Of a stretch of 64,000 bases of DNA, positions 3,060-20,922 are shown piece after piece. The stretch is from NCBI RefSeq assembly GCF_009931435.1, contig NZ_CP043414.1; one strand, 5' to 3'. How positions within the stretch are numbered: the stretch's first letter is position 1; every line of letters starts with the position of its first letter. Under the pieces are notes generated by a model. The model ran no database searches and was not told the DNA's origin. It worked only from the letters and a program-made list of their open reading frames with translations. This DNA comes from Escherichia coli (GTDB taxonomy: Bacteria; Pseudomonadota; Gammaproteobacteria; Enterobacterales; Enterobacteriaceae). Both the position numbers and the translations under genes were made by a program.

Positions 3060-3120
3060 ATTATTAGCTTATCGATCGATATAAACGATCGATAAAATAG
3101 ATATCGATCGTTTTATTCTA
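3060..3120 (-). promoter_or_regulatory. flu (agn43) phase-variation control region with three clustered GATC (Dam) sites
   Basis: GATC at 3074-3077, 3087-3090 and 3106-3109 within an AT-rich tract about 190-220 nt upstream of the flu start; matches the known Dam/OxyR switch architecture. Confidence 0.7.
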
Positions 3121-3214
3121 TTATTGAGCTATTGCACGGACAAGAGAGACAGTAACGAAAACAGTGCTTTTGTGAGCAGACTCAGAGTCAGGGAGGGCAT
3201 CAGTCACGACAGGT

Positions 3215-4087
3215 TCAGAAGAAAATCCAGTTCCATACCGCACGGGCAACAGAGACCACCGTGTCACGAACAGCGCGCAGGGCCGTACGGACAACAGAGG
3301 CAACACAGACGCTCTCCGCTGTGTCAAATATCCGGTCCACCGCACCGGTAAACTGTTCACGGGCCTGAGAGCGGACAGATTCCGTGCGCAGCTCGTCCTG
3401 CAGTCGGGTCATCAGGGGACTGGCGGCATGGTCGGGAAGCGCTGTCATGAGCGCACTGACCAGCGTATCCAGTTCCCAGCCGGTGCGGGCCGATACGGCC
3501 ACAACCGGATGTACGGGCCGGAACAGACGGAATACCGCCTCCGTTTTTTCGCGAATATTCTGTGCCTGTGCAGGAGAAGGCTGAATACCGGCCATATCCC
3601 ATTCATGGCAGGGCTCCGTTTTGTCGGCCTGCGTCACCACAAACAGTACCCGCTGATGTCCCCGGTGCAGGATGTGTCGCCAGAAATACTCATCCACAGA
3701 CAGGGCACGGTCATCGGCTTTAATCAGCCACAGTACCAGGTCAAGTTCAGGCAGAATGTCACGGTACAGGGCCTCATACTCTGCATCCCTGTCCCGGCTC
3801 TCGCCCACCCCGGGCAGGTCAGTGATAACCATGCTGTGACCGTGGCCACTCAGACGGAAGCGCCGTACTTCCCGGGTGCCGGCGTGAACATCACTGACCG
3901 GGGTGACCTCCCCCTGAAACAGTGCATTACAGAGTGAGGATTTACCGGCCCCGCTTTTACCCATAATGCCAATCACGGGTTCGTGACGGGTGAGTTTGCG
4001 CAGATGTTCCAGGATGTGACGGGAAAGCGAGTAAGGCAGGGAGGAGAGCGGTTTTTCAATTGCCTCAATGGCATCAGACGGATTCAT
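3215..4087 (-). CDS. yeeP: YeeP/YfjP-family prophage GTPase (50S ribosome-binding GTPase-like), apparently full length
   Basis: Translation from internal ATG at 4087 (MNPSDAIEAIEKPL...) with P-loop GIMGKSGAGKSS and DLPG motif; ORF-track start at 4126 is probably an N-terminal over-extension. Confidence 0.8.
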   Translation of the reverse strand: MNPSDAIEAIEKPLSSLPYSLSRHILEHLRKLTRHEPVIGIMGKSGAGKSSLCNALFQGEVTPVSDVHAGTREVRRFRLSGHGHSMVITDLPGVGESRDRDAEYEALYRDILPELDLVLWLIKADDRALSVDEYFWRHILHRGHQRVLFVVTQADKTEPCHEWDMAGIQPSPAQAQNIREKTEAVFRLFRPVHPVVAVSARTGWELDTLVSALMTALPDHAASPLMTRLQDELRTESVRSQAREQFTGAVDRIFDTAESVCVASVVRTALRAVRDTVVSVARAVWNWIFF

Positions 4088-5315
4088 ACATGTATTCCCG
4101 GTGAAAAAAGACAAAACCCCGCGCACCGGAAAGGTGGCGGGGGATTCACGGAGATAATATCTGTCTGAAATTGTTTTTAATCGATGGGATTGTTGCGTAT
4201 TAACATGAAGGAGATCAGGACTTATCCGTTACTGGGTGATCTCCTTCCATGAAAATACGCCGTTATTGTTAAACAGCAGGCTGATTTCTCCGTAAAGGGG
4301 AAAATATTTATCGGCTGCATGATTATCAGGTGTGTCTGTGTTTACTGCTGTGAGTATTTTTCAGTGTATTGTGGGGGAGATGTCAGTGGGAGATATTAAA
4401 TTTACATTTATAATTATCTTACTTCTTCTGTGTGTTTTTTATAAGAGTGCACACGTAATGATATCTGTTGATACCATGTGGTTAAGTGTTTCCCTTCCTG
4501 GTCATGCGTAATGATTAAATGCTTTTGTGACACCATTCTTCCGGTCTGAATATTTATCCCGTTCTTTTTTATTTGTGCAGTGATACTGTCGGAAGAGAAT
4601 TCAGTAATGTGAGGTGTCCTGGTCAGGATAATATCTGCTGAGATATTATTAGTTGAGTGTGTTTTTACTGAGCAAAAGCTGGCTTTTAATTCCTGTACTG
4701 AAACGCTGTTGCTCGTCCGGGGTTAACTGAAACTGGATGATGATGTAAAATGAAGGCTGTTTTTGTGTTTGTCGAAGAAGTGTTATTTTAATCCATTCTC
4801 ATCATTGGCTGGCGATTATACAGAAGTATTTGAAGAAAAAATGGTGCATTTTATCTGCGTCAGCAGGGAGGAAGTATTTTATTGATGTATCAGTATTAAA
4901 TGGTTTTTGTTATTTAGAAATATGTCATCCTGTCCATAGAATATTGTACTCAGCATTCAGTGCAGGAACTGTAGTCTTCTTTATTTTATTCTTCTTCAGG
5001 AGGGGGGATTCCTGAAGGCGTTATTCCCGGTGTTCTGTTTATGATTCATCCCGGCAGGAAACCGGTATCTGCAATACCCGGGATGATGCTTTTTGTTCGT
5101 ACGTGGTTGTGTAAAATTTGAATAGTGGATGTGCTCTGAAGGGAAGGAGGGGACACACAGATTCATTTTGTCTTTCTTCAGCAGCAAAACACACTGTGGT
5201 TATTATTTAACCATTAAATCAACAAAAATTTTTACCTCATATTGATTTGACTGCTATTTTTGCTATTAATAGCCAGAATTGCAGTACTTTTATATCTGTG
5301 TGTAGTGAGGTTACT

Positions 5316-6800
5316 ATGTCATTCGGTCAGCCTTGTGATGAGTTTCCCCTGAGTTCGCTGCCTCCACTCATTCGTGATGCCGTTATTGAAGCTCAGCAAA
5401 TTACGCAGGCTCCCCTTGGGCTTGTGGCAGCGTCTGCCCTGGGCGCTGTTTCACTTGTCTGCCAGAATCTGATTGATGTCTGCAGACTGAATACACTGCG
5501 GGGGCCGGTCTCTCTTTTTTTCCTGACGCTTGCCGAGTCCGGAGAACGAAAAATCGCAGTGGACAAATTATTAATGAAGCCCCTGTATCAGCAGGAGATG
5601 CAGTTATATTCCAGATACAAAAGTGAACTGGCTGTCTGGAAAAACAAGGAAGAGCTTTTAAAGGCTCAGAAAAAAGCATTGTTGTCAAAACTGAATAAAG
5701 AACTCCGCAAAGGAGCGGATGAGTCAGAAACCCTCAGACAACTGGAAGTACTTCAGAAAAACAGTGCGGAAGAACCTGTGAGGTATAAATTCATTTTTAA
5801 TGATGCCACGACTGCGGCAATTAAGAATCAGCTTTGTGGTAAATGGCGTTCAGTGGGTATTATGTCAGATGAAGCCGGTATTATATTTGATGGATATACC
5901 CTGTCTGAGTTGCCATTTATTAACAAAATGTGGGATGGCTCTGTATTGTCTGTGGACAGAAAGAATGAACCCGAACAGATGATTGAAAATGCCAGAATGA
6001 CGTTATCCCTCATGGTGCAACCCGGTCTTTTTGACCGATATATGGAGCGAAAAGGTTCTGTTGCCAGGGACAGTGGTTTTCTTGCCCGTTGTCTTATCAG
6101 TAAACCTGCAACCACGCAGGGGAAACGCTTTATTAACGGAGCTGTGATTCCGGGAGGATCATTAACGGCATTTCATGAACGATTAATGGAACTGGCCAGA
6201 GGCAGTATTGAAAAATCCAGTGAGGATGAACGGTATTGTCTGCATTTTTCGCCTGAAGCGCAAAAAATATTTATTGAGCACTATAATGTTCTGGAGCAGG
6301 ATTTATCTCCCTCCGGTCCGTTAAGTGCGTTTCGGGGACATGTTTCAAAAAAAACAGAAAACATTGCAAGAATTGCAGCGTTATTTCAGTATTTCAGCTA
6401 TGGTGAAGGGAAAATCTCTGCCGATATCATGACGTCTGCTGTCGTAATAAGTTCGTGGTACACAGATGAATATAAAAAATTATTTGCGTTACCTGATGAA
6501 TCTGAACTGCAGCAGAAGGACGCCGAGGAGCTGTTCGACTGGCTCATTGAGGAGTGCCGCGGAGAATGCCCACCCCGTGTCAGGAAAAATTATATTCTCC
6601 AGTGTGGCCCGGGTCGGTTCAGAAACAGGAAAAAACTGAACGCATTGCTGAACATTCTTGAATCTCAGTTCAGGCTTTCTGTCGTGCCGGAAGGAAAAAC
6701 CATGTATGTTCTGCTTCCCCAGATAGCCAGTTTAAAGTTGTCTGATGTCTCTGGTATTTTTACCTCGGGTTATCACTACAATAAGCTGAGAGCGAAGTAA
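5316..6800 (+). CDS. Large island protein, tentatively DUF3987 / YfjI-like (prophage replication-associated protein of unknown function)
   Basis: 494 aa from ATG 5316 preceded by GTGAGG Shine-Dalgarno; motifs recalled from the DUF3987 family (MSDEAG, GSVLSVDRK, LMVQPG, GFLARCL); no P-loop visible; family assignment from memory only. Confidence 0.55.
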   Translation: MSFGQPCDEFPLSSLPPLIRDAVIEAQQITQAPLGLVAASALGAVSLVCQNLIDVCRLNTLRGPVSLFFLTLAESGERKIAVDKLLMKPLYQQEMQLYSRYKSELAVWKNKEELLKAQKKALLSKLNKELRKGADESETLRQLEVLQKNSAEEPVRYKFIFNDATTAAIKNQLCGKWRSVGIMSDEAGIIFDGYTLSELPFINKMWDGSVLSVDRKNEPEQMIENARMTLSLMVQPGLFDRYMERKGSVARDSGFLARCLISKPATTQGKRFINGAVIPGGSLTAFHERLMELARGSIEKSSEDERYCLHFSPEAQKIFIEHYNVLEQDLSPSGPLSAFRGHVSKKTENIARIAALFQYFSYGEGKISADIMTSAVVISSWYTDEYKKLFALPDESELQQKDAEELFDWLIEECRGECPPRVRKNYILQCGPGRFRNRKKLNALLNILESQFRLSVVPEGKTMYVLLPQIASLKLSDVSGIFTSGYHYNKLRAK

Positions 6801-6859
6801 CCGGTGAGCAGTTTTTCTCCATTATGCTTCAGACTTAGATGATTGATTATTATGGGGAT

Positions 6860-6899
6860 TTCATCACCGATATTCAGATGTATGAATATCGGTGATGAA
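6860..6899. repeat. Perfect inverted repeat (17 bp arms, 6 nt loop) between convergent genes; possible bidirectional terminator or protein-binding palindrome
   Basis: ttcatcaccgatattca / gatgta / tgaatatcggtgatgaa read directly; no U-tract on either side. Confidence 0.5.
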
Positions 6900-7121
6900 C
6901 TAAAGCTCAGGAGTTGCGTGGTGGTGATGAATCAACAGGCATATAACTGATACCCGCCGGTCAGAAGTTCCAGCCTGCGACTTTCCTGTCTGCGTGCCCG
7001 CAGTCCGGCGTTCAGGTGCAGCGTGTGACAGAACGCACGGAGAGCGAAACGGCAGGCAGACAGGCTGTTCAGTCAGCCCTGGCACCCTGCCCGGATACCA
7101 GCTTCCCTGAAACAACTGGCA

Positions 7122-7730
7122 TCAGGTGCGCTTATCGTCAACCGTTGTGCGGTATGCCAGGAGCACGTACTGATCCATCAGATCCGTCAGTGCTGCGCTC
7201 TGCTTCTGACGGTTGATGATCCATTCCTCCAGCTCTTTTTCTGATTTCCGTTTCAGATTCTCCGTCCAGTCGTCAAGGCAGTTTCCGGTCATTAAATCAA
7301 GCCAGCAAAGCCAGACCAGTTTGAGGCGCAACTCCGTGCCACCAAACTGACGGAAGAGGCTGATCAGTTTATTTGCCAGCGAACGCTGCCTCAGACGTTC
7401 ACATTCAGACAGGAGAATGCCTTCCAGCATCGGATGATGAACCAGCAGATGTTCACTGGTGCATAAATTCACTATCAGATCATCATCCAGGGGCGGCGTG
7501 GTCCGTTTGTCCGGACCATAAATCAGCCGGTGCAGACTCTGGGGTACGATGGCAATCTCCGGTTTTTCACCATTGAATGACACCCACCCGGGCGTCAGAT
7601 TATGGAAGTAGTAGATATTCGGATGACACACGCCCCAGGATACGGCGTGCCGGGTGAAGCCGGTCAGCCATTTCTGGTAGCTTTCGTGGAGCAGCTCGTA
7701 ACGGGTCTGATACTGTGGTTTCATTTTCAT
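7122..7730 (-). CDS. Hypothetical protein (202 aa) downstream of alpA on the same strand
   Basis: ORF 7122..7871; internal ATG at 7730 (MKMKPQYQ...) has a GAGGAA Shine-Dalgarno 6 nt upstream; no family recognised. Confidence 0.5.
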   Translation of the reverse strand: MKMKPQYQTRYELLHESYQKWLTGFTRHAVSWGVCHPNIYYFHNLTPGWVSFNGEKPEIAIVPQSLHRLIYGPDKRTTPPLDDDLIVNLCTSEHLLVHHPMLEGILLSECERLRQRSLANKLISLFRQFGGTELRLKLVWLCWLDLMTGNCLDDWTENLKRKSEKELEEWIINRQKQSAALTDLMDQYVLLAYRTTVDDKRT

Positions 7731-7810
7731 ATTCCTCACGGGAGATAACAGGCAGCAGAACGCCGCCGGCAGGCCGGAGACTGCGTCTGCTGCAGATGAA
7801 CGGTTAAGAA

Positions 7811-8017
7811 TTACGGACGGGACTGTGCAATACGCGCCTGCAGCCAGGCTTCCACTTCGCTTTTCAGCCATCGGGAGCTGCGGCCCATTTTGATGGGCGC
7901 AGGAAAGTCACCATCCTTGATGAGTTTGTAAAACCACTTATCGGTCAGGCCGGTCAGTTGAGTGATAAATGCCATGTCGACCATCTGGTCATCCATCAGT
8001 GAAACTGGGGTGATCAT
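7811..8017 (-). CDS. alpA: AlpA-family prophage transcriptional regulator (MerR-like HTH)
   Basis: MITPVSLMDDQMVDMAFITQLTGLTDKWFYKLIKDG...RWLKSEVEAWL pattern typical of the AlpA family; ATG 8017 preceded by GAGGAA. Confidence 0.75.
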   Translation of the reverse strand: MITPVSLMDDQMVDMAFITQLTGLTDKWFYKLIKDGDFPAPIKMGRSSRWLKSEVEAWLQARIAQSRP

Positions 8018-8563
8018 GAGAATGTTCCTCCGGATGTTGTTAAACCAGCCGGTGTGGTCATGAAAACAACGCACCACCTTCACCGGCATAACAACCGGGG
8101 AGAAACGTAAAAAATAATCGGGAATGTGACCGCCAGGAGATAAACGGGGAGGTTACGGTGGCTGAGCCGTACCGGTATGCCGGGTGGTTGTTACGAAACG
8201 ATGCTTCCGCACGCGCGCGCGATAAAGAAGGGATGATTTTCGTGAGGAAGAGGGGAAAACTGGCGTTCTGATAATTGCAGAGTTATTTACGGGGCGGTTA
8301 CGATGGGGCAGACCGTGTCCGGTGGGCAGGCGACAGGTATCACCGATGGGATAAGACTGTCTGATTGGTATTATAAATATATAAGAGAGATCAAACACAT
8401 GAGATCAAATACATGAGTTCATATATGTGAAATAAACACGGTGAGTGTGATCAGTGGGCATGATGAGAACGCAGTAGCAACAGACTGCGCTATCCCTGAT
8501 AGCTGGCGTATAACCTGCGTATATAAAACGTACCAGCAACGCACGTGAACAGAGTGCATTAAG

Positions 8564-8579
8564 CATCCGTCGTTGACAC
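8564..8579. repeat. 16 nt identical to the IS100 right terminal repeat (catccgtcgttgacac); solo IS21-family end remnant
   Basis: Exact match to 25513-25528 plus flanking c of the IS100 copy in this window. Confidence 0.5.
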
Positions 8580-9329
8580 CGACCTGGTGAGTGACAGTCT
8601 GAGAGACCGGTTAAGTGGTGGTACGGGAGTAATGAGTTTGGGGTGGGTACCAGAATGCCAGTCTGGCGGTATGCTGACAGTATCACGTTAATTGCAGCAT
8701 AAAGTGATGAGAGGCTAATGGAAGTTAAAACCAGAGCAGTTCCGTCGTTGTTCATCCCGGGAGACGCTGGAAAAAGTGATTTCCCACACGCGTTATAAGC
8801 TTACTCCAGCGGAGATGGAAGCCTTCAACTCTGCGGTCGATCACCGACTGGCAGAACTGACAATGAACAAGCTTTACGATCGTGTTCCCGCTTCAGTCTG
8901 GAAATATGTCATCTGAGCGTTCGGTAATCACAACTGCATCGCGCCAGGTGTTATCCGCTTTGTGATTCTTATTGGCTCTTCTCAGGTTATTAAAAGCTGA
9001 ATATGTTCCTGTTGTCGGGAACCAGGATAATACCGGGAGCGTTAAGCGGTATAGCGACAACAAAGAATTCGAAATCAAAAGGGAATGGTGCCGGAGGCGT
9101 GGGCGGTAATAGGCTGATTTTCAGGTATTACCGGCTTACAACGTGTGGTTGATATTGAGGGGCTGTGAGTTTCGCGTATTTGTCAGAAACCCAGATGAGT
9201 TTTCCTGTATGGGACGAAATAAGGCAGCGGCAATACCTGGAAAATTTAATATGGTATGAAGGAGAACCTGTCGGTTACGCTTAATATACACGGTACACTG
9301 TCAGCTCAGGGGATACATGAACCGTTATC

Positions 9330-9539
9330 TCACCAGCTACACAGTATACACACACTGACGCTGACAGTAGTCAGCAGGACCACAATAATCAGCGCCAGCA
9401 GTATGGTAACGATACGGTCTGTATTCCGGTAGTAGCCGAAGGGGTCGACAGAACCACAATACGGGCAACACACTGTATTATTAGTAATCGCGTTTCCACA
9501 GTCCCTGCACTTCTTTTGCGTATCACCATAACTCCCTCC
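9330..9539 (-). pseudogene. Small zinc-ribbon plus transmembrane-helix protein, apparently frameshifted
   Basis: ATG at 9529 with strong GAGGAGGGAG Shine-Dalgarno opens a 46-codon frame; the -1 frame encodes CRDCGNAITNNTVCCPYCGS followed by a hydrophobic helix (IVTILLALIIVVLLTTVSVSV) but lacks a start codon. Confidence 0.4.
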
Positions 9540-9727
9540 TCACAGCCTTACCCGTAACCGGTTTTTTACATTAAAAAACAACGCTGAAAATTCAACCGTC
9601 AGTCCGGAGACGACCGTTCGGGTTATCACAGAGTGCCTGAGACAGTGTCCTGCCGGAGGTCACTTCAGGGACTCTGCGCATTTTTTACGACGTGGCTATT
9701 CCGTATGAACCATACGGAGATTTAACC

Positions 9728-10297
9728 ATGACCTACAAATACAACCCCTTCTGGCAGCAACGTATTCGTGAGACGGTGCGGCACGCACTGAATGTTCATC
9801 CCCGCCTGACGGCATTGCGGGTTGACCTGCGTCTCCCGGATGTACCGGCAGCAACGGACGCAGCTGTGATATCCCGCTTCATCAATGCCCTGAAAGCCCG
9901 AATCGACGCTTACCAGAAACGTAAGCATCGGGAAGGTAAACGCGTGCATCCCACCACCCTGCATTACGTCTGGGCCCGGGAGTTTGGGGAGTTCAAAGGT
10001 AAAAAACACTATCACCTGATGCTGCTGGTCAACCGGGATACCTGGTGTCGTGCCGGTGATTACCGCGCTCCGGAGTCTCTGGCCGGGATGATTAAACAGG
10101 CGTGGTGCAGTGCCCTGGGAGTGGATGTCGGGTGCCATGCCACGCTGGTGCATTTTCCGGCCTGGCCGGCGGTGTGGCTGGCGCGTAATGATGACACCGG
10201 CTTTCAGCAGGTGCTGGAACGTGCTAACTATCTGGCGAAGGAGCATACCAAAGCTCACTGCACCGGTGAGCGCAACTTTGGCTGCAGTCGTGGCTGA
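9728..10297 (+). CDS. HUH-type rolling-circle Rep-like protein (YagK/YfjJ / inovirus gp2-like family)
   Basis: HUH motif KKHYHLML and YxxK motif (NYLAKE) near the C-terminus; ATG 9728 with GGAG Shine-Dalgarno embedded in an 8 bp palindrome (9700-9718). Confidence 0.65.
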   Translation: MTYKYNPFWQQRIRETVRHALNVHPRLTALRVDLRLPDVPAATDAAVISRFINALKARIDAYQKRKHREGKRVHPTTLHYVWAREFGEFKGKKHYHLMLLVNRDTWCRAGDYRAPESLAGMIKQAWCSALGVDVGCHATLVHFPAWPAVWLARNDDTGFQQVLERANYLAKEHTKAHCTGERNFGCSRG

Positions 10298-20004: not shown

Positions 20005-20922
20005 ATGAACTTCAGACGCCTGAAATACTTCGTAAAAATTGTAGATATTGGTAGCCTGACCCAGGCTGCTGAAGTATTGCATATCGCACAACCAGCGCTC
20101 AGCCAGCAGGTTGCCACACTGGAAGGTGAGTTAAATCAACAGCTTTTGATTCGCACAAAACGGGGCGTTACGCCAACAGACGCCGGAAAAATTCTCTATA
20201 CCCATGCACGGGCCATTTTACGTCAGTGTGAGCAGGCCCAACTGGCGGTGCATAACGTTGGTCAGTCATTATCGGGGCAAGTCTCGATTGGCTTTGCGCC
20301 AGGAACCGCTGCGTCATCCATCACCATGCCCTTATTACAGGCGGTTCGCGCTGAATTCCCGGAGGTCGTTATCTATCTTCATGAAAATAGTGGTGCAGTG
20401 CTTAACGAAAAACTGATAAATCACCAACTCGATATGGCGGTGATTTATGAGCATTCCCCTGTGGCTGGTGTATCCAGTCAGGCTTTACTGAAAGAAGATC
20501 TTTTCCTGGTAGGGACTCAAGATTGTCCGGGGCAAAGCGTTGATGTTAATGCTATTGCACAAATGAACCTCTTTCTTCCCAGTGATTACAGTGCTGTTAG
20601 ACTTCGTGTTGATGAGGCTTTTTCCCTACGGCGACTCACGGCAAAAGTCATTGGTGAAATTGAGTCAATTGCCACGCTTACCGCAGCGATTGCCAGCGGC
20701 ATGGGCGTTGCAGTATTACCCGAATCGGCCGCGCGTTCGTTATGTGGCGCAGTAAACGGGTGGATGTCACGCATTACCACACCTTCCATGAGTCTCTCTT
20801 TGTCATTAAATTTACCCGCCAGAGCGAACTTATCACCACAGGCACAGGCAGTGAAAGAGTTGTTAATGTCAGTGATGAGTTCTCCAGTGATGGAAAAAAG
20901 GCAGTGGCAATTGGTGAGCTAA
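20005..20922 (+). CDS. nac: Nitrogen assimilation control protein Nac (LysR family)
   Basis: 305 aa from MNFRRLKYFVKIVDIGSLTQAAE... Confidence 0.95.
   Translation: MNFRRLKYFVKIVDIGSLTQAAEVLHIAQPALSQQVATLEGELNQQLLIRTKRGVTPTDAGKILYTHARAILRQCEQAQLAVHNVGQSLSGQVSIGFAPGTAASSITMPLLQAVRAEFPEVVIYLHENSGAVLNEKLINHQLDMAVIYEHSPVAGVSSQALLKEDLFLVGTQDCPGQSVDVNAIAQMNLFLPSDYSAVRLRVDEAFSLRRLTAKVIGEIESIATLTAAIASGMGVAVLPESAARSLCGAVNGWMSRITTPSMSLSLSLNLPARANLSPQAQAVKELLMSVMSSPVMEKRQWQLVS

Follow-up and report, generated by a model that had tools for sequence, protein, structure and literature searches.

The perfect palindrome at positions 6860-6899 of the analyzed Escherichia coli DNA (a stretch of 64,000 nucleotides, here called the window) is real and, judged from its homologs, an evolutionarily maintained hairpin. 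We tentatively read it as a 3'-end stem-loop without U-tract, of the kind seen at Rho-dependent transcript ends, which quite possibly serves one or both of two convergent transcripts.

Direct reading of the window showed that the sequence at 6860-6899 is exactly as the earlier note had described it, a perfect palindrome with 17-bp arms and the loop gatgta. The left arm (6860-6876, TTCATCACCGATATTCA) and the right arm (6883-6899, TGAATATCGGTGATGAA) are 100% complementary and enclose a 6-nt asymmetric spacer, GATGTA (6877-6882); no strand is assigned to any of these elements. A repeat search identified it as the longest perfect inverted repeat of the 64 kb window. In 100 sequences simulated with a first-order Markov model of the window, with loops of 3-20 nt allowed, the longest perfect arm measured 8-13 nt, compared to the 17 nt observed. 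Folded as RNA, the 81-nt region reaches -28.6 kcal/mol, whereas shuffled sequences reach -15.3 ± 2.5 kcal/mol (z = -5.3; 0 of 200 shuffles were as good), and the folding energies of the hairpin are alike on both strands. By fold strength the palindrome ranks about 10th of 42,634 windows of 50 nt on both strands, in agreement with the claim that it is among the strongest hairpins of the window. Only 6 of the 17 stem pairs are G-C (35%), so the stem is AT-rich and not GC-rich as in intrinsic terminators; the centre of the palindrome is 73% AT in the window type.

The outer 9 nt of the left arm, TTCATCACC, are the part which is common with sister islands, and the outer 9 nt of the right arm, GGTGATGAA, are homologous to GGTGACGGA in the sister loci L003 and L005. 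A third exact copy of TTCATCACC is located at 6923-6931 on the minus strand, 32 nt downstream of the right arm and in direct repeat to its outer 9-mer. Three exact copies therefore lie within 72 bp, compared to three others in the rest of the 64 kb. The third copy is improbable by chance, yet it is not conserved in the sister lineages. L003 and L005 lack it or have it in degenerate form, and it stayed unchanged in the variant L002, where the arms changed; it was thus rejected as a conserved third binding site.

The absence of a U-tract, also claimed before, was found on both strands: 3' of the stem the plus strand continues with CTAAAGCTCAGG and the minus strand with ATCCCCATAATAATC, and a terminator scan did not flag 6860-6899. 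The stem is flanked by ...TATGGGGAT and CTAAAGCTC..., without U-tract or A-tract, and the same applies to L002, L003 and L005. No promoter-like site was predicted at the palindrome, and an Rfam covariance-model scan of 4000-10000 gave matches at chance level only (E > 1). Several other candidates were rejected. A small ORF (MIDYYGDFITDIQMYEYR) crosses the hairpin from 6840, but its ATG and frame are lost in L002. Compared by eye with the consensus sequences, a DnaA box shows 3 mismatches, and a Tus-Ter site has only AACTAAAG in common while its GTTGTAAC core is absent.

The gene order of the locus was taken from the RefSeq annotation of an identical strain and the families from Pfam. The locus, part of an island that is CP4-44-like in the naming used for K-12, comprises agn43 (-), a GTPase gene (-), a YfjI-family gene (+), a 200-aa gene (-) and a 68-aa HTH gene (-), followed by hha, an 'inovirus Gp2 family' gene, zinc-ribbon genes, IS debris, cobU and tRNA-Asn. 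The yfjI-family gene (DUF3987, 5316-6800, plus strand; Pfam E 5e-94) encodes a predicted AAA+ helicase, which is MCM-like and has a putative winged-helix domain at its C-terminus. Converging on it is the hypothetical 200-aa gene (7122-7724, minus strand, PGAP annotation), whose protein has no Pfam or NCBIfam match. It forms a minus strand pair with the AlpA/excisionase-like HTH gene (7811-8017), the first gene of the pair. The 'inovirus Gp2 family' (YagK/YfjJ) gene is annotated in RefSeq at 9692-10297 on the plus strand. Within about 9 kb on either side of the palindrome no recombinase gene is annotated.

The palindrome had been placed between the converging DUF3987 gene and a 202-aa gene. The convergent arrangement holds, but the gene is annotated by PGAP with 200 aa, and it is not the nearest feature on the right-hand side. 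This is a remnant of about 105 nt, missed earlier, which represents the 3' end of a paralogous 190-aa gene (6924-7028, minus strand). It encodes ..YQLYAC* with the stop at 6932-6934, is 73-77% identical to the last ~105 nt of the 190-aa gene of sister islands and contains one frameshift. The palindrome starts 59 nt after the yfjI stop and lies 32 nt from the stop of the remnant gene. A further fragment at 7047-7083 is inverted and originates from the same family as the paralogous 190-aa gene. Together, the remnant and the inverted fragment indicate that the spacer 6900-7121 is the scar of a rearrangement or recombination, a module swap that installed the present 200-aa gene. The 3'-end remnant also shows that the ancestral position of the hairpin was about 32-39 nt past the stop of the 190-aa gene.

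The present 200-aa gene is followed, 23 nt past its stop, by a separate strong hairpin (7050-7099, minus strand, -24.3 kcal/mol). This hairpin belongs to the top 0.4% of the local background, is followed by UUUCGCUCU and is possibly the own terminator of the 200-aa operon; probably it represents the proximal 3' structure of this operon. The hairpin shares sequence with an inverted repeat whose arms are located at 6985-6998/7051-7064.

The window matches E. coli chromosomes, and the same 601 bp are present with at least 99% identity in about 1160 complete genomes. Of 5426 complete E. coli genomes, 1178 contain the 160-bp spacer, which is invariably chromosomal and found in the same context. With this 160-nt intergenic query, 1461 places were counted in the 1178 genomes (median 1, maximum 3 per genome), corresponding to one to three islands. 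The 58-nt palindrome query matches both strands, so its counts are doubled. Over the 58 nt around the palindrome, 1094 of the 1178 genomes show no difference, a degree of conservation close to that of the flanks. A BLAST search with the 160-bp spacer detected the palindrome on no true plasmid or phage; the plasmid matches are three records of 1.4-4.9 Mb, evidently chromosomes filed as plasmids. The same search, with no meaningful phage match, did not point to an oriT mimic or phage site either. A dispersed palindromic repeat (REP/BIME, ERIC, MITE ends) was rejected in view of the single context and the median of 1 per genome. We found nothing on the intergenic element of the palindrome in the literature on YfjI/DUF3987 and YfjJ/YagK.

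Variants of the window type are few. L038 and L039 differ in the flanks only. In L040 and L041, T12 of the left arm is changed to C, which results in an uncompensated stem mismatch. L002 and L042 are about 94% identical and carry a C8:G to T:A exchange on both arms in addition to C3 to T, which forms a G·T pair.

In about 800 genomes, including CFT073, the island carries a yfjI gene which is 93% identical until about 75 nt before the stop and divergent from there on. The spacers of these sister islands (L003/L046) and of a third type (L005/L045) can be aligned with the window spacer, with a cross-lineage identity of only about 70%, and contain a shorter homologous hairpin at the same place (CCGTCACCC..GGGTGACGG in L003 and TTCGTCACCA..TGGTGACGGAA in L005). 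In L003 and L005 it is located 41-49 nt past the yfjI stop and 37-39 nt past the stop of the converging gene, within a spacer of 114-120 bp. The lineages show homology in the outer 9 nt of the arms (TTCATCACC/GGTGATGAA), while the inner 8 bp are palindromic in the window lineage only. Between the conserved outer arms lie 22 nt in the window type (16 of them paired) compared to 16-17 nt, largely unpaired, elsewhere, and the conserved cores are shifted by 5-6 bp centre-to-centre between lineages. The hairpin centre is GC-rich in L003.

Stem pairing is kept through compensatory changes at 3-5 positions. Across lineages, arm position 2 is T-A, C-G or T·G, position 4 is A-T or G-C, position 8 is C-G or T-A, and position 10 is G-C, C-G or A-T in three lineages, while positions 5-7 (TCA) and 9 (C) are invariant. 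In the outer 9-bp stem 96% of the cells pair, and three pairs are altered on both sides (UA/CG/UG, AU/GC and CG/UA). The covariation score is 0.356, compared to 0.209 ± 0.047 in shuffled alignments, none of which reached this value (0 of 500), in a small sample of six haplotypes from about four lineages. Slid controls showed a pairing of only 26-58%. Conservation in related elements, named before as a check on the palindrome, was thus found as a homologous hairpin at the same place in four lineages, with compensatory changes. Such covariation of an inverted repeat is equally expected for two identical protein sites or for templated self-correction of quasi-palindromes. An assignment to one strand by the asymmetry of G.U and A.C pairs was rejected: there are two cases per strand (L002 position 3 and L005 position 2 versus L040 position 12 and L003 position 1), with similar folding energies.

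The hairpin accompanies yfjI and not the HTH/190-aa pair, which is present without the repeat in L043 and L044, two loci lacking yfjI. The yfjI lineage of the window type is restricted to E. coli, and all the remaining YfjI proteins that were found share about 50% identity with it. No yfjI relatives between about 55% and 77% identity were found outside E. coli, so no hairpin lineages could be added. Using a covariance model of the hairpin on the window and 43 loci, no related repeat was found after the yfjI genes of about 50% identity. One match of this model at 20823-20900 (E 0.02) proved on reading to be a poor partial repeat and was judged to be chance.

Strong hairpins after yfjI track convergent gene order and not yfjI itself. 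The best 45-nt fold was compared in 29 spacers downstream of yfjI; its mean is -20.5 kcal/mol where the next gene is convergent (n=6) and -11.7 kcal/mol where it is co-directional (n=23; Mann-Whitney p = 3e-4), the six convergent cases representing about three independent origins. In a Kosakonia locus (L021, ~4440-4490), a perfect AT-rich palindrome with 16-bp arms and a loop of 6 nt, followed by a U-tract, lies between yfjI and a convergent yfjJ-like gene. By its sequence this is a textbook bidirectional terminator, and its form is that of the repeat of the window. In islands without yfjI, the HTH/~200-aa operon has strong 3' hairpins of unrelated sequence, and weaker ones before a co-directional Gp2-like gene.

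As a 3'-end structure, the stem-loop would sit in the 3' UTR common to yfjI (+) and the AlpA-like-HTH/200-aa operon (-). Because it is palindromic, the hairpin would form in both transcripts. Because no U-tract follows, the stem alone would probably not release RNA polymerase, and transcription would end further on, probably via Rho. The RNA would subsequently be shortened by 3'-to-5' exonucleases as far as the stem, which would define and protect the mature 3' end and limit antisense read-through into the opposing gene. Here we infer RNA as the relevant molecule, the involvement of Rho and exonucleases, and the strand of greater weight. For the minus strand the palindrome may be redundant, because the 200-aa gene has its own hairpin 23 nt after the stop.

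Rho-dependent transcripts of E. coli were shown to end precisely just past stable stem-loops, which have reduced U, no upstream A-tract and a mild excess of C over G downstream and shield against 3' exonucleases (Dar & Sorek 2018, PMC6061677). The palindrome has in common with this class a stable 3' UTR stem-loop without U-rich tail and without upstream A-tract. In contrast to this class, its stem is unusually long, perfect (17 bp) and AT-rich; the AT-rich stem (35% GC), longer than typical terminator stems, counts against a 3'-end function. On the minus strand a weak C-over-G excess is seen, and the plus strand is G-rich at first. In the 80 nt past the hairpin the minus strand has 20 C versus 11 G (23 versus 9 in L002 and 22 versus 14 in L003), only about 1.5 sd of the background, in which the difference C minus G has an sd of 6.7 per 80 nt. 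On the plus strand, 6 C and 14 G are found in the first 40 nt past the hairpin, which is not rut-like.

Of the functions suggested before, a terminator-like one in its U-tract-less form is partly supported and fits best, an RNase processing site is conceivable, and an AlpA operator fits least. For a bidirectional terminator, the position midway between the convergent stops and the conservation across lineages agree with the earlier suggestion, while the canonical intrinsic form does not. A true intrinsic (Rho-independent) terminator which releases RNA polymerase on both strands is therefore quite improbable here. Like known bidirectional intrinsic terminators, the palindrome is one stable hairpin midway between converging stops, with a stable stem after the stop codon, and L021 shows that such terminators occur in related islands. 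Unlike them, it lacks the 3' U-tract and the 5' A-tract on both strands in all four lineages, and its stem is AT-rich. Use of the palindrome as a double-stranded operator by a dimeric regulator, with the AlpA-like HTH protein and the 200-aa protein as candidates, would explain the perfect dyad symmetry, the invariant core and the third half-site copy. However, the site is located at the 3' ends of both genes without predicted promoter, L043 and L044 have the HTH/190-aa pair but no such repeat, and the distance of the conserved cores varies by 5-6 bp (22 versus 16-17 nt between the outer arms). This variable spacing would be tolerable for a stem-loop and not for a dimer site of fixed geometry, and the AlpA binding site proposed earlier is poorly supported and very unlikely. 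To our knowledge, AlpA/Xis-type proteins do not typically bind perfect palindromes. In its form, with inverted 17-bp arms around the asymmetric 6-bp GATGTA, the palindrome also resembles a core site of a tyrosine recombinase (lox/dif-like). But the spacer-proximal halves of the arms, which are most important in such sites, lack palindromic symmetry in L003 and L005, the annotation shows no recombinase gene over ~9 kb to the left or to the right, and one copy is present per island and none on plasmids or phages, which makes this explanation extremely improbable.

The palindrome might also have no present function. An ancestral hairpin of 9-10 bp would have been lengthened to 17 bp by template-switch 'correction', a known mutational route in quasi-palindromes of E. 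coli, and would persist through the recent spread of the island. The inner 8 bp are palindromic in the window lineage only while the outer 9 bp are shared, the surrounding 6900-7121 carries the gene remnant and the inverted fragment left by the rearrangement, the identity over 58 nt in 1094 of 1178 genomes resembles that of the flanks and gives no sign of extra constraint, and L040/L041 is a natural variant with an uncompensated mismatch. Against this, the hairpin is kept in place across spacers of about 70% identity with several independent double changes, and the link to convergent gene order suggests selection for at least the basal stem. As a whole this explanation is unlikely, if to be taken seriously, and it is plausible for the extra 8 bp in particular. 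Slightly less weight we give to a loading site or SaPI-like origin, in which the opposed TCACC repeats and the third copy would be DNA sites for the C-terminal winged-helix of YfjI. The repeats would flank an AT-rich, easily melted or extruded centre directly 3' of the helicase gene. DUF3987 proteins are helicases of mobile elements, and AgaPH is a tested 5'-3' helicase (PMC11724360; PMC5862659). The AlphaFold2 model of YfjI (pLDDT 78) shows an AAA+ core whose best PDB matches are MCM subunits, with weak Foldseek E-values (0.008-0.5), and, in the C-terminal part (residues ~395-466), the a-b-a-a-b-b topology of a winged-helix; the final 23 residues are disordered in the model and differ between island lineages. 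In SaPIs the origin lies directly downstream of rep, with opposed iterons around an AT-rich centre which are read by the winged-helix domain of Rep (PMC9371898). The locus resembles this layout in the position 3' of a mobile-element helicase gene with predicted C-terminal winged-helix, in the opposed repeats and in the AT-rich centre. It is unlike it in having 2-3 repeats instead of 6-12, namely one per side and one extra where SaPIs have at least 2 per side, in their length of 9 nt instead of 5-6, and in a sister-lineage centre which is not AT-rich. The repeat 59 nt after yfjI, the 73% AT centre, the constant positions 5-7 and 9 (position 8 is C or T), the three copies of TTCATCACC within 72 bp versus three in the remaining 64 kb and the linkage of the hairpin to yfjI rather than to the HTH/190-aa pair favor an origin. 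Not in line with it are the GC-rich centre in L003, the third copy, which is absent from L003 and L005 and did not co-vary in L002, and the loci with about 50% identical YfjI, where the covariance-model search (44 sources) found no related repeat and hairpin strength follows gene orientation.

The (+) origin of filamentous phages contains gpII-binding repeats, with beta and gamma inverted and delta direct. The palindrome resembles these in the inverted pair with a third copy direct to the second, and the island encodes an 'inovirus Gp2 family' protein. Unlike in the phage origin, 2.8 kb separate the palindrome from the Gp2-like gene, the sister lineages do not keep the third copy, and no nick-site motif was identified.

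As a U-tract-less 3' stem-loop the palindrome would be an ordinary feature, one more of its kind, which chiefly aids the annotation of transcript ends. The host island, which encodes Ag43, is very common and occurs in about one in five complete E. coli genomes. If the repeats served as an origin, the SaPI-like layout of helicase gene and then origin would exist in CP4-44/CP4-57-type islands, and widespread 'cryptic prophage-like' islands would be able to replicate alone after excision, which such an origin would make directly testable. That the TCACC repeats are such an origin read by YfjI, by which the 'cryptic' CP4-44/CP4-57-type islands self-replicate after excision, is by analogy a rather doubtful assumption.

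Further observations concern the window and related islands. An imperfect inverted repeat of 30 nt at 3065-3131, in the interval from agn43 to the GTPase gene, is rich in GATC/ATCGAT; presumably it is the region through which Dam and OxyR control the phase variation of agn43. The segment 19603-41205 contains four tRNA-Asn genes and one tRNA-Ser gene. The island borders on cobU and the asn-tRNA cluster, a side on which the annotation of the identical reference strain shows no intact integrase. The 68-aa AlpA-like HTH protein and a ~197-202-aa protein without known family form a conserved pair in islands of Enterobacterales (L047-L053 and L057-L062), which adjoins variable defence cargo such as BREX, Dnd and type I restriction-modification. 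In Yersinia ruckeri (L050, 3121-3200), two adjacent inverted repeats with a common AGCTATC, one of them with 13-bp perfect arms, are located between the 197-aa gene and dndB and are followed by several ACGTA motifs. The AT-rich yfjI-yfjJ spacers of the CP4-57 type (L006 at ~4925-4960; L007, L023, L025, L031, L012 and L036) contain recurrent palindromes just upstream of the Gp2-like yfjJ, e.g., ATCCCTGTGA..TCACAGGGAT and TAGGTAATATATA..TATATATTACCTA, which may be an operator or origin for the Gp2-like protein.
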